Shown here: piece by piece, positions 1 to 13,314 of the stretch | Layout: each line of letters opens with the position of its first letter | How positions within the stretch are numbered: position 1 is the first letter of the stretch | Origin: a virus | Lineage: Duplodnaviria > Heunggongvirae > Uroviricota > Caudoviricetes | Direction: 5' to 3' (one strand) | IMG/VR virus record: IMGVR_UViG_2698536536_000004 | Length of the DNA stretch: 13,314 nt | The notes under the pieces: model-generated | Databases searched by the model: none | Told to the model about the DNA's origin: nothing | The model's input: only the letters and a program-made list of their open reading frames with translations | Made by a program: the position numbers and the translations under genes

Positions 1-155
1 CTAGATGTAGAACTGTGTGGTGACGGTCTTCCAGCTATTCGGCTCCTGCTGTATTGAAGCATACCAGGCTATTTCAATATCGCTATGCTGCGGCAGCATT
101 TAACCCCTTGTAATTCATTGCCATAATTGATTTAATTCACAAATAAAACTATAAC

Positions 156-824
156 ATGGTGAAATTAATGAAAAAAAACACAGATGATGGGGCTAAAATT
201 TACACACCACTTACCCTAAAGCTTTATGACTGGTGGGTTTTGGGAGTATCAAATCGGCTTGCATGGGGATGTCCTACAAAGGAACACCTTCTTCCACACT
301 TTCTGGAACATTTAGGTAACAACCATCTGGATATTGGTGTTGGAACTGGGTTTTACCTTACTCACGTACCTGAGAGTAGTCTGATATCTTTAATGGATTT
401 GAACGAAGCTAGCCTGAACGCGGCATCTACAAGGGCTGGGGAATCAAAAATTAAACATAAAATTAACCATGATGTTTTTGAACCTTATCCCGCGGCGTTA
501 CATGGTCAATTTGATTCCATTTCCATGTTTTACCTTCTTCACTGCCTGCCTGGAAATATATCTACAAAAAGCTGTGTAATACGCAATGCGGCGCAGGCCT
601 TAACTGACGATGGAACTCTATACGGAGCCACAATTCTTGGCGATGGAGTTGTGCACAATAGCTTCGGTCAAAAACTGATGCGCATTTACAATCAGAAAGG
701 CATCTTTTCAAACACAAAAGATTCCGAAGAAGGCTTAACACATATACTCTCAGAGCATTTCGAGAATGTTAAAACCAAGGTTCAAGGTACTGTAGTAATG
801 TTTTCCGCTTCAGGGAAAAAATAG
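156..824 (+). CDS. Class I SAM-dependent methyltransferase (ybcY-like prophage cargo gene)
   Basis: 222-aa ORF with a glycine-rich motif I (LDIGVGTGF) typical of Rossmann-fold SAM methyltransferases. No DPPY/NPPY or PCQ DNA-methyltransferase motifs are visible. M5 at 168 has the better SD (GGTGA) and may be the true start. AT-rich. Confidence 0.7.
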   Translation: MVKLMKKNTDDGAKIYTPLTLKLYDWWVLGVSNRLAWGCPTKEHLLPHFLEHLGNNHLDIGVGTGFYLTHVPESSLISLMDLNEASLNAASTRAGESKIKHKINHDVFEPYPAALHGQFDSISMFYLLHCLPGNISTKSCVIRNAAQALTDDGTLYGATILGDGVVHNSFGQKLMRIYNQKGIFSNTKDSEEGLTHILSEHFENVKTKVQGTVVMFSASGKK

Positions 825-1371
825 CATCCAACCGCAGCATGTTCTTGCATAAGGCGTGTCTGCGGTTTTTCAACTATTCAGATACATCACTCCCATCACA
901 TTCATTCCTCCGCATCATAGGCATATAGGCTATATCACCTTGATATTTTTCTTCTTCAGATAAAAACTGTTATCTATGTATACTTTTAAACCCAATCCGT
1001 GTAGAGTCTCTGCATAAGATAGTTTGCAGTTGCCACTTCAGCTTGCGCCATAAACCGCCTGATTTTTGCTGCCACCTGTTAGCATTCCTGTATACCTGAA
1101 ACGACAATGTTTATCTACGAACTTTAAGAACCCCCAGGATAAAAATTGTCAACTATATCATATATAACACATTACTAATTCGAGGCTATATGAACAGCAT
1201 ACTGATAATCACTTCGCTCCTTATCATATTCAGCATTTTTAGTCATGCGCTAATAAAATTAGGGATTGGCATATCCAATAACCCAGACAAAACCGATGTA
1301 TAAGTCAACATATCCTGAATCAGACATACAATATCGCAATGAAAATCAATAATATTTTAAGGAATATCTTC

Positions 1372-1605
1372 ATGAAATCAAAAGACACCCTAAAGTGGTT
1401 CCCTGCGCAGCTTCCTGAAGTAAGAATTATCCTAGGGGATGCTGTAGTGGAAGTAGCAAAACAGGGAAGACCTATCAATACCAGAACATTGCTTGATTAC
1501 ATTGAAGGAAACATAAAGAAAAAATCATGGCTGGATAACAAAGAATTATTACAAACAGCGATATCAGTTCTTAAAGACAACCAAAATTTAAATGGTAAAA
1601 TGTAA
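1372..1605 (+). CDS. ydfK: YdfK/YnaE-family small prophage protein (cold-shock-induced family in K-12 Qin/Rac)
   Basis: The ORF from M12 (MKSKDTLKWFPAQLPEVRIILGDAVVEVAKQGRPINTRTLLDYIEGNIKKKSWLDNKELLQTAISVLKDNQNLNGKM, 77 aa) matches my recollection of YdfK/YnaE. AAGGAA lies upstream of this ATG. The six-frame ORF starts earlier at 1339. Confidence 0.55.
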   Translation: MKSKDTLKWFPAQLPEVRIILGDAVVEVAKQGRPINTRTLLDYIEGNIKKKSWLDNKELLQTAISVLKDNQNLNGKM

Positions 1606-1921
1606 TATAATAAACTTACTTTTTTATCATTTTTCCACTTTAACAACATTTTGCTCCACTTTTCCACGACCAAACAACTTGAAATCTGGTTAAAATAACA
1701 CGCAACACTATTCTTCTTCCTTGAGTCCGCCCGGAACTCGAAAAACAAACCGAGTTAAAGCCATTTTTCACAAAATCGATTTTGGGTCTCACCAAAATTA
1801 CGGGGTTGCATACGCATTCGTTTATTTTCGAACGTGTACATACAAATATGCACAAAAATAATCATAATTATTTTCTGAGATGCATTATGATATGAACACC
1901 AATTTCGTATAGAGTCTCACT

Positions 1922-2512
1922 ATGTCTCAAATTTTTGCTTACTGTCGGATATCAACGCTGGATCAGACCACCGAAAATCAACGCCGGGAAATCGAAAGTG
2001 CAGGTTTTAAAATCAAACCTCAGCAAATAATCGAAGAACACATTAGCGGCTCAGCAGCAACCAGTGAGCGTCCTGGTTTTAACCGGTTGCTTGCTCGCCT
2101 GAAATGTGGTGATCAATTGATTGTGACAAAACTGGATCGCCTTGGTTGTAATGCAATGGATATCAGGAAAACAGTGGAACAACTGACCGAAACAGGTATC
2201 AGAGTGCATTGCTTAGCATTGGGGGGCATTGACCTGACCAGTCCAACAGGAAAAATGATGATGCAAGTAATTTCAGCAGTCGCTGAATTTGAACGAGACC
2301 TTTTACTTGAACGCACTCATTCCGGGATAGTAAGAGCCCGCGGCGCAGGGAAACGTTTTGGTCGACCACCTGTGTTAAATGAAGAACAGAAACAGGCGGT
2401 ATTCGAACGAATTAAGTCAGGTGTAAGTATAAGTGCCATTGCCCGGGAATTCAAAACCTCGCGGCAAACCATTTTAAGAGCCAAAGCAAAACTTCAGACA
2501 CCTGACATATAA
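1922..2512 (+). CDS. Small serine recombinase, resolvase/invertase family, with C-terminal HTH
   Basis: 196 aa. The N-terminal motif YCRISTLDQ fits the serine-recombinase catalytic motif Y-x-R-x-S-T-x-x-Q (putative nucleophile Ser11). The C-terminal GRPP...SISAIAREF region looks like an HTH DNA-binding domain. It lies next to tail-fibre remnants, as Pin-type invertases do, but the N-terminus differs from the canonical Gin/Pin MLIGYVRVST. Confidence 0.85.
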
Positions 2513-2609
2513 AAAATAATCTCGGTGTGAGATGCTTTACGTCTTCCAAGCCCCCTTCCTTGCCGTAAATGGAAAGATACATCTAATTATAGAATTTATA
2601 TGTTTTACC

Positions 2610-2814
2610 CTACGGCAGTGCTGGCCATTCAATATCCTGTGCAGTTGACGTATCAACACGGTTCAGCAATACCCGATACTTTATCGGTACTGTTTGCTGG
2701 CAGACCTGTATGAGGCGGAATATATGCGTCACCTTCACCAATAAATTCATTAGTTCCGGCCAGCAGATTATAAATTTTTATGGTCCGTGGTTGTTCACTC
2801 ATTCTGAATGCCAT
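2610..2814 (-). pseudogene. Tail fibre assembly protein (Tfa) remnant with internal deletion and frameshift
   Basis: Manual translation from the ATG at 2814 gives [44 protein letters not shown], a Tfa N-terminus, then a stop after 53 codons. A second frame just downstream reads [23 protein letters not shown], a Tfa C-terminus, with the stop at 2610-2612. The roughly 120 codons between are missing. Confidence 0.6.
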
Positions 2815-4412
2815 TATGCAAGCCTCACAATATAGTTAAATGCGATGTTTTTGACGGTGTTTTCCGCGTTACCAGCAGCGTTAACGGTGATGGTGTGTCC
2901 ATGTGAACCAATCGCAACGGAGTGCGTATGAGCACCAATACCGACAGTATGCGCGTGTGCACCTGCAGATGCTGCTGTGCCGGACAGTGAATGGCTATGA
3001 TTACCATCTGTACTGGTATTCGCTAACCACCCCGTAGACATACCTACTGAGCCTTGTACACCCCAGGTATTTTGACCTGAGCTTGTATAACCATATTGAT
3101 AAGTATCTTTAAAAACACTGGGGTTAAATCGACGGCCATCTCTATGGCTGTGATTACCAGCTGCATTCGTGCTGCCACTTAAACTATGGGTATGCGCACC
3201 AGTGTTATTCGTGGATTTAGTGCCGTAATCAAACGACGATGTGGTTTTCGTCCCCAAATCTGTACTGGATGCGCTGGCGCTGTGGGTATGCGATTTAATG
3301 CCGTCCTGTTCCTGAGACAATACGGCCCGACCACTGGCAGGTTTGCCCTTAATCGTCCAGCCACGCATATCAGGGATCACGCCTGACGGATAAGCGGCTG
3401 CAAGTTTCGGGTAAGCAGATTTGTCAAAAGTCTGCCCCTGCATCAGGGCATAACCAGACGGAACGGTATCTGATGGCCACGGGATTGGTGCGCCGACTGG
3501 GTAGCTTTCTGGTGGAAGATTTTTCGAGGTATAAACTTCTGCCCAGTCATCCTCAAAACCATAACCGTCTCTTGAAGAACGGTAGAACAGACCACCATTT
3601 CTGTAATGCGCCTTCATCTGCAAGGTCCGGCAACTTCCGACTCCGGTATAGAAGTTAACCAGAATATAGCTGTCGCCAGAGCGGGTGACATTATAAGCGC
3701 CTGATTCGGCATTCCAGGGAACGCCACCATCCGCATCGGCATATGTATCCGTTGCCCTTCTGGCAAAAGCAGCCACATGCGCGGCGGTTAAAGTAATATC
3801 TTTGGAACCATCAAACTCAACACCAGAAACCCGTCTTGGCGTTTGCAGCTTTGTTGCTGTTAATGCATTACCGTTCAGACTTGCGGACAGTTTGGTTCCA
3901 ATAACCAGTTCGCCGGTTGCGTTATCAATAGCAAACGGTCTTAATGTATTCCAGCCACCATAAACATCACCTTGATTGGTAAGCAGCAGGTAAGTTTTAG
4001 CGCCATCATTACGCCATAATGCCCCATACTCCCCACCTATCATTCGAATCTGATTACCACCACGCGCTACAATTTCGTCTGTGGCAAAAAGTTTTTTGCA
4101 CGACAAGTTATCGTTAACGATTAACGAATGAGACTCATAAAAACCACGCCCACTCTTAAAATCAAGGATAACGTCCGCCGCGATACATTCAGTCGCCGGA
4201 TTTGTTGCCCCAAACTTATAGGTCGTATCATTAACAACGAGATCAGCACCAGGTGCGGATATTGACAGGCCATCTTCGATATCTTTGTATGGTATGTAGC
4301 TGACACCTTCCAGACCATCGTTACCACTTGGGCCAGTGATTAACACTGATGCTATAGCAATTGCTCCGCCACCAATAGCAGCAGCAACGGCTTTTCGTAA
4401 TGATGGAGGCAT
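2814..4412 (-). CDS. Chimeric ORF: SAR-endolysin N-terminus (~45 aa) fused in frame to a side tail fibre (Stf) distal region with an HxH-repeat tip
   Basis: 532 aa. The N-terminus [45 protein letters not shown] matches the Gly/Ala-rich signal-arrest-release domain of phage-21-type endolysin (RrrD/R21) as I recall it. The sequence then becomes beta-rich fibre-like and ends in seven HxH motifs and [11 protein letters not shown], typical of lambdoid Stf C-termini. The start overlaps the holin stop (TAATG), with GAGGTG upstream. Confidence 0.75.
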
Positions 4413-4627
4413 TATTCACCTCTCGCAGCCTTGCGCTTATCTTCTTTAATCTTGAAATAAAGGTTTGTCAGGTACGTCAGCAGGCCAAATACCAGGCTAC
4501 CCAGCACACCTATTGCTGCCCACTGTGAGGGCGTGACTTTATCGAGCAGCTGTAAAAACCAGTAACCGGCACTACCTGCTGAGGTGCCATAGGCGACACC
4601 CGTTGTTAACTTATCCATGGATTTCAT
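4412..4627 (-). CDS. essD: Phage-21-type class II holin (pinholin S21 family)
   Basis: From the internal Met the product is [71 protein letters not shown] (71 aa), with two predicted TM helices and the dual-start motif M-K-S-M. The SD GAGGTGGGG lies upstream of ATG 4627. The six-frame ORF extends to 4672, probably spuriously. Confidence 0.85.
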
Positions 4628-4754
4628 AACCCCACCTCGCAGACAAAGCGGGTGTAAATTGAGGGAATACAACGTATCGCAAAAAAGCAGAAACGTAACA
4701 GACTCGGAGTCAGTGAATAACTCAGGTATTGGGTTATCAGCTAATATCGAGACT

Positions 4755-4785
4755 CAAAAAATGGAAAAACCCGCTCGACGGCGGG
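4755..4785 (-). terminator. Intrinsic terminator in the late-operon leader (tR'-like), ~130 bp upstream of the holin
   Basis: The minus strand reads CCCGC-cgtcga-GCGGG followed by TTTTTCCATTTTTTG, a GC stem-loop plus U-tract. Its position upstream of S matches the lambdoid pR'-tR'-S arrangement. Confidence 0.5.
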
Positions 4786-4990
4786 TTTAAGCTGTGTGAC
4801 GAAGTAACCACTCTTAACAGCATAACCAATTTTTTACGTACGTAAACCACAAAATGATATTTGCGAGAATGCTACCGAGTATTGAAAACACCACTACAAA
4901 TACATAAGCAAATCTCAACAAATAACCAACAAATAATTTCCAGTGTTATTTTTAGCCGATTTAAATTGAACCTTCAAATTACAGAGCACT
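4786..4990 (-). promoter_or_regulatory. Probable late promoter (pR'-like) and Q-utilisation region; exact -35/-10 not resolved
   Basis: AT-rich leader immediately upstream of the tR'-like terminator. One candidate is TTGAAG-17 bp-TAAAAAT on the minus strand. This is inferred from lambdoid architecture, not from a clear consensus match. Confidence 0.25.
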
Positions 4991-5216
4991 TATAAATAAC
5001 AGCCGTTAATATAAATTGGCTAATAGATTTGTTTTTATTCAGCCAAGATCCATGAATAGGATTCGATAGAAAAAAGTTCAGATAAAAATAGAGATCTACT
5101 TCACAAATCAAACGAGAAACCAAAACTTACATCTTGAAATAATCACATTGATTAGATGAATATTTATCGCGCAGTGACATCATTTTTTAATAATAGTTCA
5201 AAAAAAAGGGCTCACG

Positions 5217-6299
5217 ATGAAAAAATTAACAGTGGCAATTTCTGCTGTAGCTGCATCAGTACTGATGGCGATGTCTGCTCAGGCAGCTGAAATTTATAAT
5301 AAAGACAGTAACAAGCTGGATCTATATGGGAAAGTTAATGCCAAGCACTACTTCTCCTCTAATGATGCAGATGATGGTGATACTACTTATGCCCGTCTTG
5401 GCTTCAAAGGTGAAACCCAAATCAACGATCAACTGACTGGTTTCGGTCAGTGGGAATATGAATTCAAAGGCAACCGCGCTGAATCTCAAGGCTCCTCCAA
5501 AGACAAAACCCGTCTTGCATTTGCAGGCCTGAAATTCGGGGACTACGGCTCAATCGATTACGGCCGTAACTACGGTGTAGCATATGACATCGGTGCGTGG
5601 ACTGACGTTCTGCCAGAATTCGGTGGCGATACCTGGACCCAAACAGATGTGTTCATGACTGGTCGCACCACTGGTGTTGCAACTTATCGTAACAACGACT
5701 TCTTTGGTCTGGTTGATGGTCTGAACTTTGCTGCTCAGTATCAGGGTAAAAATGACCGCACTGACGTAACTGAAGCTAATGGTGATGGTTTCGGTTTCTC
5801 CACTACTTATGAGTATGAAGGATTCGGTGTAGGTGCAACCTATGCTAAATCTGACCGCACTAATAATCAGGTTATCTACGGTAACAACAGCCTGAATGCA
5901 TCTGGTCAAAATGCTGAAGTATGGGCAGCTGGTCTGAAATATGATGCGAACAACATCTATCTGGCTACCACCTATTCTGAAACCCAGAACATGACTGTTT
6001 TTGGTAATAACCATATTGCCAACAAAGCACAAAACTTCGAAGTAGTTGCACAATATCAGTTCGACTTCGGTCTGCGTCCGTCCGTTGCTTACCTGCAATC
6101 TAAAGGAAAAGACTTGGGTGCGTGGGGTGATCAGGACCTGGTTGAATATATTGATGTAGGTGCAACCTATTACTTCAACAAAAATATGTCCACTTTTGTT
6201 GATTACAAAATCAACCTGATTGATAAGAGCGATTTCACGAAAGCATCTGGCGTTGCTACCGATGATATCGTTGCTGTAGGTATGGTTTACCAGTTCTAA
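5217..6299 (+). CDS. nmpC: Outer membrane porin, OmpC/OmpF/PhoE family (prophage-encoded NmpC/Lc type), apparently intact
   Basis: 360 aa with signal peptide [29 protein letters not shown], the characteristic porin N-terminus, and C-terminal ...VAVGMVYQF ending in Phe. The SD AAGGG is present. Its position and orientation relative to Q and the holin match DLP12 nmpC. Confidence 0.9.
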
Positions 6300-6462
6300 T
6301 TTGATTACTAAAAGATATGTTGCGGGAGGCTTTGCCTCCCCAACATATAAGTGGCTCCCTCAAGCCACTTCCTTTAGGAGCACAACCTTGCTTCTAACTA
6401 TATAAACCTTCTGTTATATATTACCCTTTATTTTTGGGGGCGTTGCAACGCCCCATTTTTAA
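6300..6462 (+). ncRNA. ipeX: Candidate IpeX-like small RNA in the structured nmpC 3' region
   Basis: The ~160 nt after the nmpC stop contains three hairpins: ATATGTTGCGGGAGGC/GCCTCCCCAACATAT, AAGTGGCT/AGCCACTT, and a terminal GGGGCGTTG/CAACGCCCC plus U-tract. I recall a DLP12 sRNA (IpeX) encoded at the 3' end of nmpC, but the exact boundaries are not verified. Confidence 0.35.
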
Positions 6463-6470
6463 TAATTTTT
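6436..6470 (+). terminator. Rho-independent terminator downstream of nmpC
   Basis: Perfect 18-bp palindrome GGGGCGTTGCAACGCCCC followed by ATTTTTAATAATTTTT on the plus strand. Confidence 0.65.
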
Positions 6471-6487
6471 AGTAAACAATTGGCATA

Positions 6488-6871
6488 TTAATTAGAGTTA
6501 TTAACAACGATATCCATCTCTAACCGGATATCTAATGCCATTAACATCCCTTCAATTATGCCCTCAGCCTTCTGTAACCTTTTCCCGATATAACCATCAG
6601 AGCAGCAATGCTTACCTGCCAGTGACATGAATGTCATACCGACTACATAATAATCTACTAATAAATCGTGCAAATCGCTGTTGTTCTTTTTCAGACGGGC
6701 CATGCACCCGCAAATAATCATCGCGTCATCGTCACAACATTGCGGGCGAGATTTTACTTTTGAAGTAATTAATCCCTTAAAACCGGCGGCAATGGACGAC
6801 CAGGTCACATCTTCATGATTATTAGCCGCCCACGCTCCCCAACGCTCAAGAACCATCTGAATATCACGCAT
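6488..6871 (-). CDS. quuD: Late-gene antiterminator Q (phage 82/21 type)
   Basis: The product [31 protein letters not shown]...[18 protein letters not shown]... (127 aa from the internal Met) matches my recollection of DLP12 QuuD. Cysteine clusters suggest a zinc-binding Q. The six-frame ORF starts five codons earlier at 6886. Confidence 0.85.
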
Positions 6872-6956
6872 CAACTTACTCCACAAAACTCAGACCAGAA
6901 CGCCAATTACAAGCAAAAATCAACAAAACAGTATTAGTTGATTGTTATCTCTGACT

Positions 6957-7097
6957 TCATACTCCTGCTCCTGTCAGTGTTTTGGCGTAATTCTTCAGTA
7001 TTCGGTAATCGGTCAAAACAGAGCCGGGGAAACGATATAAGCGCAGACGCCCCCAGCGGTGGCGAAGAAGTTCTGCCATATTAAACTCAAACATCAT
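6957..7097 (-). CDS. ylcG: Small conserved nin-region protein YlcG (46 aa)
   Basis: Manual translation gives [46 protein letters not shown]. The start ATG overlaps the rusA stop (ATGATGA). It is below the ORF-track length cutoff. Confidence 0.5.
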
Positions 7098-7456
7098 TCA
7101 TTCCCCATTTCGGTGATGGTCAGTTCCAGCCTCCCACCTTTGGTAACAGGCATCTTCACAACGCGGTAATCAACGACCTGAGCATCATCCAGCCAGAAAC
7201 CTGCTTTAGTGAGTGCGTCAAAAGCGGCTTTTTGCAGATTATCCAGGTCACGGCGACGGCGATCCGGCATGTGGCACTCAATGCGGATTTTCACAGGCAT
7301 AGCCAGGCCGATATCCAGCATTGCGTTTTTAATGATTCGGGCGACGTTATCGCGGTATGCCTGCCCCTCTGCGCTGACGTGCGTGCGCCCGCGATTATGG
7401 CGGTAATAGCGATTATTGCTCGGAGGCCAGGGTAATGTGATGCTGTAGGTATTCAC
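7094..7456 (-). CDS. rusA: Holliday junction resolvase RusA
   Basis: The 120-aa product [42 protein letters not shown]... matches RusA as recalled. The start overlaps the ybcO stop (ATGA). Confidence 0.9.
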
Positions 7457-7743
7457 GCCTTAATAACCCCCTCTTTCAGCCAGATAACCTGTGTTCTCGC
7501 CATACCTTCCAGCGCGCATTCTTTTGCATATGCAGCATCGACAAAATGTGTGCGGCGGTCGATTTCGTCGTGGCAGGCAGAACATGCAATGGTGGCAATC
7601 AGGTCTGGCGGTTTGGTACCGGTGCCGCACAATCCAGTCAGCCGGATATGTGCCAGTACAGACGTTTCAGGGTTGCCATTACATACGCCAGGGATTCTTA
7701 CCTGGCATTCCCGACTACGCGCTGCTTTTCTCAAATCAGCCAT
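7453..7743 (-). CDS. ybcO: DUF1364-family putative nuclease (YbcO)
   Basis: From the internal Met: [64 protein letters not shown]... (96 aa), cysteine-rich. The start overlaps the ninE 3' end by 8 nt. The six-frame ORF starts at 7782. Confidence 0.75.
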
Positions 7744-7906
7744 GATTCCTCCTTGCTGCCAGTCGCAACCATTTTTTATCAACCAGGCTGGCGGTATATC
7801 CGAGCAGTGTTGGTATTTCGGAAGGCTTCAGCTCCGGTTTACGCTTACGACGATCTGGTACTCTGTAGATGTGTCCGTTCATGACACGAATAAGCGGTGT
7901 AGCCAT
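7736..7906 (-). CDS. ninE: NinE-family small protein (56 aa)
   Basis: Manual translation gives [56 protein letters not shown]. The start overlaps the ybcN stop (TAATG). It is below the ORF-track cutoff. Confidence 0.7.
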   Translation of the reverse strand: MATPLIRVMNGHIYRVPDRRKRKPELKPSEIPTLLGYTASLVDKKWLRLAARRNHG

Positions 7907-8361
7907 TACGCCTCCTGCTTGTCGCGGAGCAGCTGGAACTCGCAGCTCTGCGGAATAGTCAGGTGGCAGCCAATATTCACCGCCCAGGCTTCAACCTTAC
8001 ACAGGAAGACATACATCTCTCCGGTATCAAGATCGGAGGTATGGCGTAACGACTGGATAGTGGTGATATCACCGGTTACGACATCAACCAGGTCTTTGGT
8101 TTCATAACCGAGATATGTGTGTTTGAGAGCATCTTTTACCCAAGCTGGAGTAGCGAACGTTTTACCCCTGCTGATGAGGTATTCACTGATTTCGCTGTAC
8201 CACATGTGGCTGAGTGCATTCTGGGAAAGACTGCGTTTCTCACGCCACGGTTTAAGCACCATGCGAAAGCATTTGCCCTCCTCCAGATAAGGCTGGATCT
8301 GCCGACCGATAGCGGTGAAGTTACCGCGATGTAATTTGATGCCATCTTGTGGGAGATTCAC
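7906..8361 (-). CDS. ybcN: NinB-family recombination / DNA base-flipping protein (YbcN)
   Basis: The 151-aa product [61 protein letters not shown]... matches YbcN/NinB as recalled. The start codon is GTG, preceded by SD GGAGGT. Confidence 0.85.
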
Positions 8362-8548
8362 GCTTCACCTCCGCAGAGGTCAAACGCTGGATACAATATA
8401 TCGCAGGTGCATTTCTGCATCTGTGGAGGGAGAAGAGAGTTTGGATTGTGTGTGCGCATAAACGTCCCCGTTTAGCGCAGAAGTCACCGGAGTTGTTCAG
8501 GCTCCGATGACATGATTATGGCGAGTTGATTATCGCAAATCAAAGGTT

Positions 8549-8905
8549 TTAATTGTGCTTTATTCCTTCAAGCGTTGCCTTCATACCAACCAAAGAAATG
8601 TTTAGCTCTCCAACTTTCTCAGGGCTATATAATTCAGAATGAAGCCAATATTCTAATTTATCTAAACATCTTTTAGCCAGCTCTCGATCAAAGTCTACGA
8701 CTTGGGAAGACGCTTCATACCAAAGCCTATAAAGTTTTTCTTCTTCGTTTGGGTTATTAGGCTCACCACGTTTTAATTTTTCAGTATATAAAATTGTTGA
8801 ATAAATCGCAGGAGTTAATCCAGTGATTGCCCTCTGCCGCAGATCGGATTTGTTTGTTATCCACCCCAACAGACGATCTCCCATCCATGTGATAATTGTA
8901 TCCAT
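8549..8905 (-). CDS. Hypothetical protein, 118 aa, AT-rich cargo gene of unknown function
   Basis: Uninterrupted ORF with an ATG start and predicted largely helical product (MDTIITWMGDRLLGWITNKSDLRQRAITG...). I recognise no family. It takes the place of ybcL/ybcM/ylcH in the K-12 DLP12 order. Confidence 0.5.
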   Translation of the reverse strand: MDTIITWMGDRLLGWITNKSDLRQRAITGLTPAIYSTILYTEKLKRGEPNNPNEEEKLYRLWYEASSQVVDFDRELAKRCLDKLEYWLHSELYSPEKVGELNISLVGMKATLEGIKHN

Positions 8906-9366
8906 GCTTTAGCCCTTCTTAGTAAATAGTGTGTAGGGCGACTGAAGGACCGAGTTTATGCTTTTTCGCATTGCTTTCAGTTAGTACACCGGTATCGCAC
9001 CGGAAACAATCCTACGGCAAATTGGTTGTCTGACCTCTCGGTTTTTCGTGCATTAACCGATACCCACTACAGTCTCGGCGAAAGCTGCACACCCCCAGGG
9101 TGTACTGGTAGCACTCGGCACAGCCTAGCACGCCACTTTCTTCTCACTATCCAGTCTAATTTTATCCCCTAGTCAGACACTCAGATGTAGTGCTCCGCAG
9201 CGGCATGCGGGGGAATACAAAAACTCGGACAAAATTGGGCCCTCCTTTTTGAATCACTCGCGGGGATGTAGTTATTAATACATGGAAAAAGATCTGTTTT
9301 CAAATCCAACATTATATGGTTTCAATACCACGGGGTGGCTATGTGTTTCTCATTGTTAATTGGAAT

Positions 9367-9690
9367 CTACTGTAATCGATCCGAACGTAAATGCGGCAAA
9401 ACTCGACTCCACTTATCATCCTGCCACGGCCGGAATTTTACATGTGCCGTTTCTCTGGCAAGGATTGCCTGTGCCTTATTGAGTATCTGGGGATATTCTT
9501 GCTCGATAGAAGTGAAGCGACCAGCTTCACGATGCTCCGCAACCTGAAGAAGAGGAGTAACGTTCTGGTAGGTAATTAACATCACATTCCCTGCTCGCCA
9601 TAACCAGGCGAGTGTGCAAAGTTCGTTATCAGTGAATTGTTTTGTGATTGGGTATTGTTGAACTGCTAGAACGAGAACGCCAGCATCCAT
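9367..9690 (-). CDS. Hypothetical protein, 107 aa, unknown function
   Basis: ORF with ~50% GC (MDAGVLVLAVQQYPITKQFTDNELCTLAWLWRAGNVMLITYQ...). Overlapping plus-strand ORFs 9335-9547 and 9391-9579 are probably shadows. The SD is weak. I recognise no family. Confidence 0.45.
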   Translation of the reverse strand: MDAGVLVLAVQQYPITKQFTDNELCTLAWLWRAGNVMLITYQNVTPLLQVAEHREAGRFTSIEQEYPQILNKAQAILARETAHVKFRPWQDDKWSRVLPHLRSDRLQ

Positions 9691-9764
9691 TGGCAGTCTC
9701 TATAGTAAAACCATAGCTCAGGACGCTTCGTTCAGGATAGATAATTTTATTGTACTTACCTAAC

Positions 9765-9800
9765 TTTCTTATTATAGCACGGTTGAAAAAGTGATTATTA
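9765..9800 (-). promoter_or_regulatory. Candidate extended -10 promoter (TGcTATAAT) upstream of the 107-aa ORF
   Basis: The minus strand reads cgTGcTATAAT at 9771-9781, about 80 nt upstream of ATG 9690. No clear -35 is present. Confidence 0.25.
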
Positions 9801-9801
9801 C

Positions 9802-11328
9802 TCAAAAATAAACCTCACCATCAACCATATATTTAAGAGTACTTATCGCCTGCTGGGCGGATATTGTTTTCATTAAAGGATAGTGTTTAAAAACAATGCC
9901 ATTCATAAAATAGATATCACAGGTTTTATTATCTGTATTGATTATGATTTTTTCGAATGTTTTATAGGCAAGTGTACGACATAGCTCTCGCCCATTTTTA
10001 CTGGTTAAGTCAATAGCATGAAAATCACCAAGTGAACTCACCGCTTTACTCTTCAAAGTTTTTAATGATACAGAAGCCCTTCGTAATTCCTTATCTAATA
10101 CTCTGATTTTTTCTGCTATAGCGGTAACTTCAGGCGCAACAGATAATGCAGCAATTAAATTATTAATTTTCATCTGGAGCTCAATAATTTTCAACTCTAA
10201 AGTTTCATTAGCATCTTTCTTGTTTTCAACTGGTTGGATTTTACTACAATTAAAAAGCAACTCATTAATGATATTATAATCAACCAAATCTCTCTTTATT
10301 GATGGCCTGTCACATCGATGCAGTCTTCTCATCGGACAAACATAATAGCCATGCAAACTTCCAGATACCGCATGAACAATCATGGTATTACCACAAGCCT
10401 CGCACTTCATAACTGTTCGAAGTAGATTTATCAACATAGGATTTTTGCTACTATTGCTAATACCAAAAGGTGCCAACCGAATTTCCTGTACAGCGTAAAA
10501 CAAATCATCTGATATGACTCTGGGATAATAGCCAGCGATTTCACTTATTCCTTTACCTCTTGCACGATATGAAGGTACGCATATACCTATCAGAGCTTTA
10601 TTCGCTAATAATTTTTCAATTACAGAAGGTCCCCATGCACTTTCTTTTCCTGAGAAATTCTTTACAGCATGATCATTTAAATACTTGGCTATTGCATTCA
10701 ATGAGCGCCTTTCCATCCTGAGTTTAAAAATTAGCTCAATAGTTTTCACCCTGTCGGGGTCTGGAACAAAAGCCGTTCTTTTGTCATCTAAGGAGAGCCA
10801 TCTCGGACAAGACGCCGTCATAATCGTACCTGATTCCAGTGCATCCTGCCGTTTTTTCTTCCATGATAATTTAACCCGACTTGACTTTATCTCGCTTTCT
10901 TCATTTGCCCTTTGTGCTATAAGTATGGCTTTTATTAATGAATATGGCTCATTCAAAGAGTCAATATTATAGACTGTATTGTCGCAAAGAGTTATAACAT
11001 CAATACCGTGATTCAAAATCAATTTCAGACGTTCAATCGCTTCACCGACTTTTTCTCTTGAAAGTCTGTCCAGACTTTCAACTAACAATGTAGTTCCTGG
11101 CAATATATAACCATGCTCTATAGCATCTAAAAATTCCGAAAAAGCTCCTGATTGTGCATGCTTTCCTTTGAATGCACTTAATCCTAAATCTTCATATGTT
11201 ATGGTATCAAGATAATAATCACTATTTACCTTTAACCATTCAGCAATAAGTCTTCTCTGTCGGTTTAATGAGTCGCCAGACATCTGACCTGGTGATGAAA
11301 ATCGCATATATGCTATGGCTTTTTTCAT
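9802..11328 (-). CDS. ybcK: Large serine recombinase (YbcK-like): resolvase catalytic domain, recombinase domain and Cys-rich zinc-ribbon region
   Basis: 508 aa. The N-terminus AIAYMRFSSPGQ resembles a serine-recombinase catalytic motif. The size and the CEACGN...C/CPMRRLHRC cysteine cluster are typical of large serine recombinases. Very AT-rich. Matches my recollection of DLP12 YbcK. Confidence 0.85.
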   Translation of the reverse strand: MKKAIAYMRFSSPGQMSGDSLNRQRRLIAEWLKVNSDYYLDTITYEDLGLSAFKGKHAQSGAFSEFLDAIEHGYILPGTTLLVESLDRLSREKVGEAIERLKLILNHGIDVITLCDNTVYNIDSLNEPYSLIKAILIAQRANEESEIKSSRVKLSWKKKRQDALESGTIMTASCPRWLSLDDKRTAFVPDPDRVKTIELIFKLRMERRSLNAIAKYLNDHAVKNFSGKESAWGPSVIEKLLANKALIGICVPSYRARGKGISEIAGYYPRVISDDLFYAVQEIRLAPFGISNSSKNPMLINLLRTVMKCEACGNTMIVHAVSGSLHGYYVCPMRRLHRCDRPSIKRDLVDYNIINELLFNCSKIQPVENKKDANETLELKIIELQMKINNLIAALSVAPEVTAIAEKIRVLDKELRRASVSLKTLKSKAVSSLGDFHAIDLTSKNGRELCRTLAYKTFEKIIINTDNKTCDIYFMNGIVFKHYPLMKTISAQQAISTLKYMVDGEVYF

Positions 11329-11509
11329 GGTGACACCTGCTAACGTATGCTTTTATAAACCTTAGTGGTGGGATATAATTTTTGTTTAATTTTTATTTAA
11401 AAAGACAATTAAGGTCACATTATCTTGAATATACAACAATAATCGTATTGCAATTTTCTTACGCCATAATCTTGAAAGCACAAAAGAATACATAAAAAAA
11501 TAAAGACAT

Positions 11510-11553
11510 TAACAAAAAGCATAAAACGAGGCTCATATAAATATAAGAGCCTC
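11510..11553 (-). terminator. Rho-independent terminator downstream of emrE
   Basis: The minus strand reads GAGGCTC-(12-nt loop)-GAGCCTC followed by GTTTTATGCTTTTTGTT. Confidence 0.5.
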
Positions 11554-11584
11554 CATATTTTAGTCGTTTAGAAACAAATTATTT

Positions 11585-11917
11585 TTAATGTGGTGTGCTT
11601 CGTGACAATAAATTAATAACCAACACACCGGCACAAATCAACATCATGCCTATAATGGCTGGCAGGTCCAGCCGTTGGCCGAAAAGTCCCCATGACAGTA
11701 AGCTAATCAGGACAATACCGACTCCTGACCAGATAGCATAAGCAATCCCTGTAGGAATATAAGCCAGCGTCTGAGCTAATAACCAGAATGATGCACAATA
11801 ACAAATAATTGTACCAACAGATGGCCATAACCGTGTAAAACCTTCTGAAAACTTCATTAAGGTTGTACCAATGACCTCTGCAAGTATTGCACCACCAAGA
11901 TAAATATAAGGGTTCAT
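11585..11917 (-). CDS. emrE: Small multidrug resistance (SMR) efflux transporter EmrE
   Basis: From the internal Met: MNPYIYLGGAILAEVIGTTLMKFSEGFTRLWPSVGTIICYCASFWLLAQTLAYIPTGIAYAIWSGVGIVLISLLSWGLFGQRLDLPAIIGMMLICAGVLVINLLSRSTPH (110 aa). It has four TM helices and the conserved Glu14, and AGGAAAG lies upstream. The six-frame ORF starts at 11971. Confidence 0.9.
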   Translation of the reverse strand: MNPYIYLGGAILAEVIGTTLMKFSEGFTRLWPSVGTIICYCASFWLLAQTLAYIPTGIAYAIWSGVGIVLISLLSWGLFGQRLDLPAIIGMMLICAGVLVINLLSRSTPH

Positions 11918-11984
11918 AGAATATTCTTTCCTGTTCAAACTGGAGAGAATTGTACTACAGTTTGAACTCAACTCACCTGTTTCA

Positions 11985-12287
11985 TCATTGTGTACCCATT
12001 GATGTTCTTTTATATACCCTCAATACCCGTTTCATCGCGGCACTCTGGCGACACTCCTTAAAAATCAGATTCGTGCTCACCTTTCCTTCCCGTTCTTCTC
12101 TGGTAGCAAACCGGTAATACACCGTTCGCCAGACCTTACCTTCGATAACCAGAAGACCTGCCCGTGCCATTTTAGCCGCAGCCTGATTTATGCTGGTTAC
12201 CGTTGCGCCTGTTACCGCGGCAACGTCCTGCGCACAGAATTTCTTATGAGTCCCCAGGTAATGAATAATTGCCTCTTTGCCCGTCAT
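11985..12287 (-). CDS. ren: Ren-like protein (lambda ren homologue)
   Basis: The product MTGKEAIIHYLGTHKKFCAQDVAAVTGATVTSINQAAAKMARAGLLVIEGKVWRTVYYRFATREEREGK... resembles lambda Ren as recalled. The start overlaps the P stop (ATGA), as in lambda. Confidence 0.7.
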   Translation of the reverse strand: MTGKEAIIHYLGTHKKFCAQDVAAVTGATVTSINQAAAKMARAGLLVIEGKVWRTVYYRFATREEREGKVSTNLIFKECRQSAAMKRVLRVYKRTSMGTQ

Positions 12288-12985
12288 ACCCTTGCTCCTT
12301 TCAGCCCAAACTTAGCTTTGATTTCTGCGATCTTCGCCAGAGCCTGTGCACGATTTAGAGGTCTACCGCCCATGACAGGAAGTTGTTTTACTGGTTCAGG
12401 TATAGCCTCACCACGGTTAATTCGTGCGGTCATACAGGACAGTTCATCGGCAGCCTTGCGCCGTAATTCCGCGTCAGTCAACGCATTGGCCCGCATGTTC
12501 TGATACAGGTTGGTAACCAGCCAGTAGTGCGCGTTTGATTTCCACGGATAAGACTCTGCATCCGGATACAGCCCGCGCTTCCGGCAATACTCGTAAACCA
12601 TATCAACCAGCTCGCTGGCGTTTGGCAGCCCGGCGGTAACGGATGCTTCTTCCCGGCACCAGGCGACAAACTGCCCGGGTGATGGCAGGAATGGTCGATT
12701 CTGCCGACGGGCTACGCGCATTCCAGCGTTAACCTGTTCCATTGTGGTGATCCCGTTTTCCCGGAAAGCCAGCACCCACTGGCGGCGGATTTCGTTCAGT
12801 TCATTCTGGTCACGGTTAGCCAGGCTCGCCGGGAAAGTTGCCAGTAACTGGCTGAACACACCATTGATGATCTGCGCTACCTGTTGTACCTGCGGCTTTT
12901 CGTCGTACTGTTCCGGCATGTTGTTGGCGATCCGGCGCATCTGCTCACGGTCAAAGTTAACCATCTGTGCGGCGATGTTTTTCAT
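12284..12985 (-). CDS. P: Replication protein P (lambda P-like DnaB helicase loader)
   Basis: The 233-aa product MKNIAAQMVNFDREQMRRIANNMPEQYDEKPQVQQVAQIINGVFSQLLATFPASLANRDQNELNEIRRQWVLAF... is near-identical to lambda P as recalled. The start overlaps the O stop (ATGA). Confidence 0.85.
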   Translation of the reverse strand: MKNIAAQMVNFDREQMRRIANNMPEQYDEKPQVQQVAQIINGVFSQLLATFPASLANRDQNELNEIRRQWVLAFRENGITTMEQVNAGMRVARRQNRPFLPSPGQFVAWCREEASVTAGLPNASELVDMVYEYCRKRGLYPDAESYPWKSNAHYWLVTNLYQNMRANALTDAELRRKAADELSCMTARINRGEAIPEPVKQLPVMGGRPLNRAQALAKIAEIKAKFGLKGARV

Positions 12986-13314
12986 AAATCCACCCCGTAA
13001 ATCCAGTCAGTGTTTGTCAGGTCGAGTTTTGGTTTGCTGGCTATCATGCCTGCCTGTTGCTTGTTACGGTTGATTTCGAGTTGAGTCCACTTGTCGCGGA
13101 GTTTGGCCGGACTTAGCACGTTACCGGACCAGAAGTTGTCCTGGCATGCCCAGCGGAAAAGCACGCACATGTCGCGGTGGTTACGTCCGTCACGTTCACG
13201 CATCAGGCGGATATCGTTAGCCCACCCTGCAAAATTCGGTTTTCTGGCTGATGGTGCGATGGTCTTCACCATGTCAAACATCCACTCTGCGGCGGTCAGG
13301 TCTTCTGCTGTCAT
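12982..13314 (-). CDS. O: Replication initiator O, C-terminal (P-interacting) part; 5' end probably beyond the window edge
   Basis: The ORF runs to the window boundary, ends ...TDWIYGVDL, and sits immediately upstream of P with an overlapping stop/start. The N-terminal iteron-binding domain is not in the window. Confidence 0.65.
   Translation of the reverse strand: MTAEDLTAAEWMFDMVKTIAPSARKPNFAGWANDIRLMRERDGRNHRDMCVLFRWACQDNFWSGNVLSPAKLRDKWTQLEINRNKQQAGMIASKPKLDLTNTDWIYGVDL

Follow-up and report, generated by a model that had tools for sequence, protein, structure and literature searches.

Endolysin loss by deletion from the late-control and lysis region of a DLP12/PA-2-type defective prophage of Escherichia coli

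Introduction

The late-control and lysis region of DLP12/PA-2-type prophages is an already known system. One copy of it is described here from IMG/VR record IMGVR_UViG_2698536536_000004, a stretch of 13,314 nucleotides (nt) henceforth referred to as the window; positions are counted from its first letter, and the strand as presented is the plus strand. The region of interest comprises quuD, encoding a Q-type antiterminator, the reverse-oriented porin gene nmpC, the pinholin gene essD and what is left of the endolysin gene rrrD.

Among the closest described systems is prophage DLP12 of E. coli K-12 (qsr'), with the order quuD-nmpC-essD-rrrD-rzpD/rzoD. PMC7918800 attributes, through a citation, Q-type control by terminator readthrough to the lysis operon of this prophage, and describes low expression of the lysis genes under the control of Q, RpoE and Hha. 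The hybrid phage 434B holds a segment of K-12 DLP12 with IS5 inside nmpC. The order Q, reverse porin, holin is also found in PA-2 and PA-2-like phages (36 records at 93–100% identity, with PA-2, mEp332, ev243 and PhiR68_2 among them), in which R, Rz, bor and the terminase genes come after the holin.

Phage 21 provides the reference for this type of late control. Its curated record annotates a −35 and a −10 element, separated by a spacer with two 8-bp repeats that bind Q, and then the start; relative to the latter, a sigma-dependent pause element occupies +2 to +8 and a terminator +3 to +50. The Q21 protein forms a nozzle on RNA polymerase's exit channel for RNA, preventing formation of the terminator hairpin. 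The phage 21 pinholin makes nanometre-scale holes and is lethal once triggered, and a signal-anchor-release (SAR) endolysin is required for degradation of the wall (PMC9239132). The E-X8-D-X5-T triad of SAR endolysins and their SAR behaviour have been described in the same source. In Shiga-toxin phages, the late promoter PR' is constitutively active and its transcript is terminated during lysogeny (PMC7547250).

Results

The lysis cassette and its truncated endolysin

The interval from quuD to the rrrD remnant is, with high probability, a DLP12/PA-2-type late-gene switch that has lost its endolysin by deletion, the expected non-lytic outcome being a by-product of decay and not an adapted system. 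The essD gene (4412–4627, minus strand) encodes a phage-21-type pinholin that matches PF04971 ('P21 holin S', E 2e-35) and does not differ from the EssD protein of strain KSC207 (100% identity). The protein starts with MKSMDK and has a dual start, Met1 giving a 71-residue antiholin and Met4 a 68-residue holin; a dual start is also annotated in phages 434B and 21. The cassette contains this class II pinholin with its dual-start antiholin; absent from it are a SAR endolysin having both a lysozyme domain and the E-X8-D-X5-T triad, and an Rz/Rz1 spanin pair.

Only codons 1–45 of rrrD remain (4278–4412, minus strand). They encode the SAR anchor, Glu35 and Asp44; Thr50 and the whole lysozyme domain are gone. 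Joined to them in frame are the C-terminal 487 codons of a side tail-fibre gene (2814–4277, minus strand), resulting in a chimeric open reading frame (ORF) at 2814–4412 whose 532-aa product shares only residues 1–45 with RrrD. The tail-fibre part matches the Pfam families Gp34_trimer, Collar, Phage_fiber and gp37_C and shows 97% identity to a strain 165 tail fibre. An initial annotation of the window had described a lysis cassette without its endolysin, and this structure confirms it: rrrD ends at codon 45 and the remainder is tail fibre. The proposal depended on the absence of a full endolysin with Rz/Rz1 elsewhere in the same transcription unit, and none is present in the window, where RrrD is represented by residues 1–45. 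A tblastn search of the window for an RrrD or RzpD remnant elsewhere returned none, with chance hits only for RzpD (E > 4), and nothing similar to Rz/Rz1 occurs in the ORF list of the window.

The junction at 4278/4279 (CAAAGATAT / CGAAGATGG) falls within a 3-nt 'TAT' microhomology common to both parents. In strain KSC207 this site is occupied by a complete prophage, which is 99.9% identical to the window over 4279–13312, and three other complete genomes are 100% identical there. Compared with KSC207, ~23 kb are absent, namely the rest of rrrD, rzpD/rzoD, iss, ylcI, nohD, the terminase genes and the head and tail genes as far as the middle of the tail fibre. A separate frameshifting deletion of 367 nt relative to KSC207, at 2682–2685, cuts the tail-fibre assembly gene, leaving a remnant of 53 aa (2653–2814, minus strand). 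A Pin-type invertase was considered as the maker of the junction and rejected in favour of microhomology, the only inverted repeat nearby being 16 nt long (14/16 matching), without extension and at chance level. One arm of this repeat (2622–2637 / 4257–4272) lies 6 nt from the junction and the other between the assembly remnant and the invertase gene.

The junction was found as one piece in 0 of 5,426 complete E. coli genomes, and the exact 532-residue fusion protein is recorded in three contigs only. One carrier of the identical fusion (ERR12666599, locus L012) is without the segment corresponding to window 7893–12877 (ybcN through the replication genes, ~5 kb), and an integrase-family gene lies a few hundred bases past the new joint; decay has continued within the same fusion lineage. 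Independent deletions were observed in relatives. The tail fibre is joined to essD' in CFSAN061772 and to a terminase gene in TUM12355. In 17 genomes, strain 165 among them, the Rac locus has RrrD-like residues 1–58 in frame with a tail fibre (735 aa) after a class II holin. These independent deletions are located at L008 4685–7107 (strain 165, Rac), L001 5012–7017 and L009 4684–6341. Because the allele is rare, its junction lies in microhomology, a second deletion is found nearby and relatives carry independent deletions, it looks like a rare product of ordinary prophage decay and not an adapted function.

Two in-frame SAR-anchor::tail-fibre fusions have a chance of ~1 in 9 of arising together.

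The antiterminator QuuD

The quuD gene (6488–6871, minus strand) encodes 127 aa from its ATG, with an alternative at 6488–6886 from an upstream TTG. QuuD matches Pfam PF06530 over its full length (E 3.5e-53). Its sequence is the same as that of the Q protein in phages PhiR34_1 and PhiR68_2 (100% identity), and it shares 78–81% identity with Q of Shiga-toxin phages, including EDL933-Stx. Comparison with the solved Q21 structure (6P18/6JNX) gave E 7.6e-7 and 29% identity, as for a distant homologue. PF06530 is the Q21 family (PMC9388147), named the Q21/Q933W family in bioRxiv 651190. The region therefore holds a PF06530 protein homologous to Q21, and by these matches QuuD is a Q21/Q933W-family antiterminator.

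Both the Pfam family and the match to the solved structure point to Q21, and a Q82-type assignment was rejected for that reason. The pR' of phage 82 has a pause at +25 and a GCC at +15 to +17 (PMC5001585); an apparent GCC match of the present leader to this promoter was dropped as being of no use as evidence.

The late promoter pR'

The predicted pR' is located on the minus strand at 4819–4846, ~25 nt upstream of a hairpin terminator. It consists of a −35 element TTTACG (4846–4841), a 16-nt spacer with the conserved CGTAAAAA and a −10 element TATGCT (4824–4819), with the start predicted at 4812–4814. On this strand, 4847–4757 aligns with the DNA directly after Q in Shiga-toxin phage YYZ-2008 and in prophage PPyecE, and with the DNA just upstream of S in SfII, in the order −35, 16-nt spacer, −10, invariant TAAGAGTGGTTAC and hairpin. 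For the promoter-leader-hairpin block as a whole, E values of 8e-9 to 8e-28 were obtained against the corresponding position in Shiga-toxin phages, PPyecE and SfII.

In YYZ-2008, the promoter scan calls TTTACG-N16-TATCAT (locus L006, 1502–1529), the counterpart of the window pR', and the predicted start (~1536) is 258 nt from the U run of a second hairpin (1766–1794). The PR' start of the Sakai Shiga-toxin phages, obtained by differential RNA sequencing (dRNA-seq), and the 3' end of tR', obtained by Term-seq, are likewise 258 nt apart (Sy et al., PMC7547250). By homology to this dRNA-seq-mapped PR', the predicted promoter at 4846–4819 is the putative cognate pR', and a constitutive sigma-70 pR' upstream of the lysis genes is present on that basis. 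The proposal in the initial annotation would have failed had no minus-strand promoter existed between 4786 and 5216; the homologue of the mapped PR' lies within these limits.

Of the 17 loci compared, 12 carried a 13-mer core of this module, each in a single copy on the Q/S strand. The 12 comprise every locus with both a Q closely related to QuuD and the region preceding S, and three with that region only, namely PA-2, SfII and a second KSC207 locus. The core is single-copy in the window and missing from loci with a distant or unrelated Q. Because the 13-mer module was not found with the distant Q homologues of phiP27, APSE-1 and mEp390, these offer no hairpin covariation test. The conserved spacer CGTAAAAA and the invariant TAAGAGTGGTTAC just past the predicted start are candidate Q-binding features.

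The leader and its terminator

The predicted late leader of ~50–58 nt (4756–4814, minus strand) includes a hairpin at 4788–4767 and a U-rich tail at 4766–4756. In the terminator scan it appears as AAACCCGC-CGTCGA-GCGGGTTT at 4788–4767, followed by TTCCATTTTTT to 4756. This corresponds to an 8-bp stem, a 6-nt loop and a U-rich tail spanning ~+25 to +58 and ending ~130 nt before the essD ATG. Despite a scan that by itself is not beyond chance (4 sites vs 2.1 ± 1.5 in shuffles), the terminator is credible because the homologous block is kept at the equivalent place in phages. The strong minus-strand terminator that the initial annotation had placed at 4755–4785, ~130 bp upstream of the holin and where a tR' would be, was thus recovered at 4788–4756. 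Its position also suits the present Q family, in that the annotated tR' of phage 21 spans +3 to +50 of pR'. An intrinsic terminator is found shortly past the predicted start and before the late genes.

The conserved core GTTAAGAGTGGTTACTTCG (4818–4800) probably holds a sigma-dependent pause element. The segment 4628–4960 is 100% identical to the live phage PhiR68_2. Between the terminator and essD, the 5' untranslated region (UTR; 4628–4755, minus strand) carries the ribosome-binding site GAGGTGGGG, and no second terminator is predicted in it.

In Shiga-toxin phages, two hairpin terminators follow PR' (in YYZ-2008, locus L006, at 1560–1586 and 1766–1794), of which the second is the published tR' (+258, the 3' end of StxS). 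The first (~+25 to +50) is the homologue of the window terminator and matches the phage 21 tR' in position; to our knowledge, how often it terminates has not been reported. The 1986 PA-2 record J02580 labels AGTGGTTACTTCGTCACACAG as a CRP-binding site. This element corresponds to window 4792–4812 (minus strand) and to L004 1730–1750, and belongs to the predicted pR' region, of which it is the conserved portion that is transcribed first.

The porin insert between quuD and pR'

The intact nmpC gene (5217–6299, plus strand) encodes an nmpC/lc-type porin of 360 aa with a full-length Porin_1 match (E 3e-153) and runs opposite to Q and S. It is annotated as 'porin OmpC' in relatives and is homologous to lc of PA-2. 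Its 3' UTR (6300–6463, plus strand) is structured, with four hairpins, fold z-scores of −8.35 on the plus and −6.4 on the minus strand, and a terminator hairpin GGGGCGTTGCAACGCCCC with a T run detected by the terminator scan; no Rfam family matches 6300–6463. We take this UTR to be the IpeX region. IpeX has been reported to repress OmpC and OmpF. It is an ompC-targeting small RNA (sRNA; cited in PMC5745476 and PMC3333887).

On its other side the porin has an upstream regulatory region (4850–5216) that is 97% identical to PA-2, and the insert ends at the −35 of pR'. Homology to porin-less phages starts only at GTTTACG (~4847), that is, exactly at this −35. The porin cargo at ~6487–4850 is, from its composition, a self-contained insert comprising a putative promoter region of its own, nmpC and the structured 3' UTR with its terminator. 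A promoter-like site or second pR'-type module was sought in the 188 nt after quuD (6487–6300) by promoter scan and module search, and none was found; this stretch is occupied by the porin 3' UTR hairpins and terminator. The initial annotation had described the late operon as split by the porin gene, which does not hold. Because the early-right operon closes with Q and pR' is downstream of the porin, the late operon remains unbroken, with the porin lying between Q and pR' (4846–4812).

Reverse-oriented cargo is also found in SfII (locus L005, 1–1443) and mEp390 (locus L015, 1328–2146), located either right behind Q or ahead of the pR' module. Cargo may have been inserted repeatedly at the Q/pR' boundary.

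Prophage identity and comparison with described systems

Over positions 1–12412, the extent of the fetched locus, the window shows 100% identity to contig CXYB01000006.1 of the E. coli draft genome GCA_001268725.1. Downstream of the prophage, this contig continues with appY, ompT, envY and nfrA, as at the DLP12 site of K-12. With the characteristic gene order and the appY-ompT-envY neighbourhood both present, the window is a DLP12-type (DLP12/PA-2) defective lambdoid prophage of E. coli. The left prophage end at the tRNA-Arg (argU) site is outside the window and is present in relatives.

The minus-strand genes are, in order, emrE, ybcK, ybcN, ninE, ybcO, rusA, ylcG and quuD (6488–6871). They are followed by nmpC on the plus strand (5217–6299) and then, on the minus strand, by essD (4412–4627), the 532-codon ORF (2814–4412) and the 53-codon tail-fibre-assembly remnant. 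Beyond the remnant, the plus strand carries a Pin-type invertase gene, ydfK and a methyltransferase gene. These assignments agree with the annotation of close relatives. A search of the whole window against Rfam at gathering thresholds gave no match, with only chance-level Trp_leader and TarB hits over 4300–7000.

Every element listed in the initial annotation, namely Q (6488–6871, minus strand), plus-strand nmpC, the holin (4412–4627, minus strand) and a minus-strand terminator, is present. The layout is not peculiar to this locus; it is the normal functional arrangement of PA-2 and the 36 phage records, and a third of complete E. coli genomes have it in their DLP12 prophage. The block 4279–7200 (5' rrrD, essD, leader, nmpC, quuD and ylcG) is contiguous in 2,017 of the 5,426 complete genomes. 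Since the Q, reverse porin, S arrangement is present in PA-2-type phages, it is compatible with a working late operon.

K-12 DLP12 shares with the window the genes, order and orientations from emrE/ybcK to essD and the chromosomal neighbourhood. The two differ in nmpC, which is interrupted by IS5 in K-12 (seen via the 434B hybrid) and intact in the window, and in the cut of rrrD after codon 45 with fusion to the tail fibre and the loss of rzpD/rzoD, bor/iss and nohD from the window. PA-2 and the 36 PA-2-like records have Q, porin, porin-S intergenic region and holin at 93–100% identity in the same arrangement, whereas they continue with R, Rz, bor, terminase and structural genes.

Phage 21 resembles the window in its PF06530 Q, its promoter-start-terminator geometry ending near +50, its dual-start pinholin and the N-terminus of its SAR endolysin. 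It is unlike the window in Q sequence (29% identity) and in its unrelated promoter and leader sequences. Additionally, its pR' abuts the Q21 gene and tRNA genes lie between tR' and S, whereas in the window Q and pR' are kept apart by the porin insert. The Shiga-toxin phages (933W, Sakai Sp5/Sp15) have a Q protein that is 78–81% identical and a homologous promoter, initially transcribed region and first hairpin. In contrast to the window, their region extends for another ~200 nt, with a second terminator at +258, which yields the Hfq-binding sRNA StxS (PMC7547250).

Discussion

The following mechanism is proposed. The quuD gene is the end of the early-right operon, with the opposite-strand porin insert next, and the late operon begins at pR' (4846–4812). 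In the absence of Q, polymerase starting at pR' would make a leader of ~50 nt and mostly halt at 4788–4756. When Q is present, QuuD would, by homology to Q21, load on polymerase paused just past the start and form a nozzle on the RNA-exit channel that blocks the terminator hairpin, so that transcription would run into essD and beyond. An illegitimate deletion of ~23 kb has joined rrrD codon 45 to the distal half of the tail-fibre gene, with removal of the lysozyme domain, Rz/Rz1, bor/iss and the head and tail genes. The output of the switch would then be the pinholin and a membrane-anchored, catalytically dead fusion protein, and expression of Q would cause lethal membrane depolarisation while leaving the wall undegraded.

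The switch (Q, pR', leader and terminator) and the pinholin are probably functional because they are sequence-identical to live phages. Depolarisation and death without lysis upon Q induction is a reasonable prediction, and sound as physiology given the published behaviour of pinholins and SAR endolysins (PMC9239132). The growth arrest or abortive-infection-like behaviour suggested in the initial annotation would likewise follow from what has been published on pinholins.

Several observations weigh against this account. Both endolysin::tail-fibre fusions, in the window and in strain 165, are in frame, and neutral decay needs no frame. The immunity region, which bears on the transcription of quuD in the remnant, is outside the window. 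The window promoter was unflagged by the scan, scoring 8/12 at a threshold of 9, and the phage 21 Q-binding repeats ATTGAGCA/AATGAGCA have no copy in the window. We infer the start site, the pause and the termination efficiency of the present allele from homology. Finally, the 258-nt RNA of Shiga-toxin phages passes the homologous first hairpin to reach a second terminator (PMC7547250). The first hairpin is therefore not absolute, and the hairpin at 4788–4756 may be leaky, making some constitutive expression of essD possible.

The likeliest of the alternative readings is itself quite unlikely. In this reading, a Q-controlled pinholin without endolysin has been retained as an adapted device for non-lytic suicide or abortive infection, fired either by the prophage's own Q or by a cognate Q that a superinfecting phage brings in. 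In its favour, Q, pR', leader and pinholin are all undamaged, each being identical to its counterpart in live phages, and two independent endolysin::tail-fibre fusions preserve both the holin and the frame. Since Q works in trans on a cognate pR', the device could be activated upon infection by a PA-2 or 933W-type phage, and the phage 21 pinholin is lethal when triggered while wall degradation needs the SAR endolysin (PMC9239132). Retention is harder to reconcile with a junction absent from all of the complete genomes and a protein restricted to three contigs, or with a 3-nt microhomology junction next to a frameshifting deletion. Sister lineages have dropped other segments, part of essD included, and one carrier of the same fusion has been further deleted. 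Moreover, an extra pinholin would be supplied only when the invader makes its own, so that any protection would be modest.

An extended form of this idea, in which the remnant is a working two-part module, is very improbable. A resident or superinfecting Q of the same family would fire pR', and premature, non-lytic depolarisation by the pinholin would lower the burst of the invader. Depolarisation would also free the anchored fusion to the periplasm, where its tail-fibre receptor-binding tip might mask the surface receptor. If this were true, the two in-frame fusions (in the window and at the Rac locus of 17 genomes) would reflect selection and not chance.

Just as improbable is a lambda-like layout with pR' directly after quuD, late transcription passing antisense through the porin gene to 4788–4756 and an operon that is truly split. 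In lambda, phage 21 and Shiga-toxin phages, pR' does abut the Q gene, and a Q-modified polymerase could pass the porin gene and its terminators. The stretch 6487–6300, however, is without a promoter-like site or Q-linked module and is filled by the porin 3' UTR hairpins, and the block that adjoins Q in porin-less phages sits here at 4846–4756, with homology from the −35 onward. The pause and Q-loading site must also be promoter-proximal for normal function (PMC4914094).

Least likely of all is that the element at 4812–4792 and its neighbourhood serve porin regulation instead of the late switch: PA-2 record J02580 annotates a CRP site on AGTGGTTACTTCGTCACACAG and the element is a partial palindrome, but the same element with promoter and hairpin adjoins Q in the porin-less YYZ-2008 and PPyecE and lies upstream of S in SfII, and here it is 400 nt from the porin start codon, with a second annotated CRP site much nearer.

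The preferred reading, a DLP12/PA-2-type late-gene switch left without its endolysin by decay, also places two kinds of phage cargo relative to late transcription. The porin lies upstream of pR' in the window, whereas the stx genes of Shiga-toxin phages lie downstream of pR'/tR'. Because the cargo sits on opposite sides of pR', the porin would be regulated independently, and stx is coupled to late transcription. The finding matters mainly for annotation, in that pR' and tR' of the DLP12/PA-2 late region are now precisely placed. Nothing points to selection on the remnant; if Q-triggered depolarisation without lysis does occur, the prophage would be a simple, natural holin-only killing remnant.

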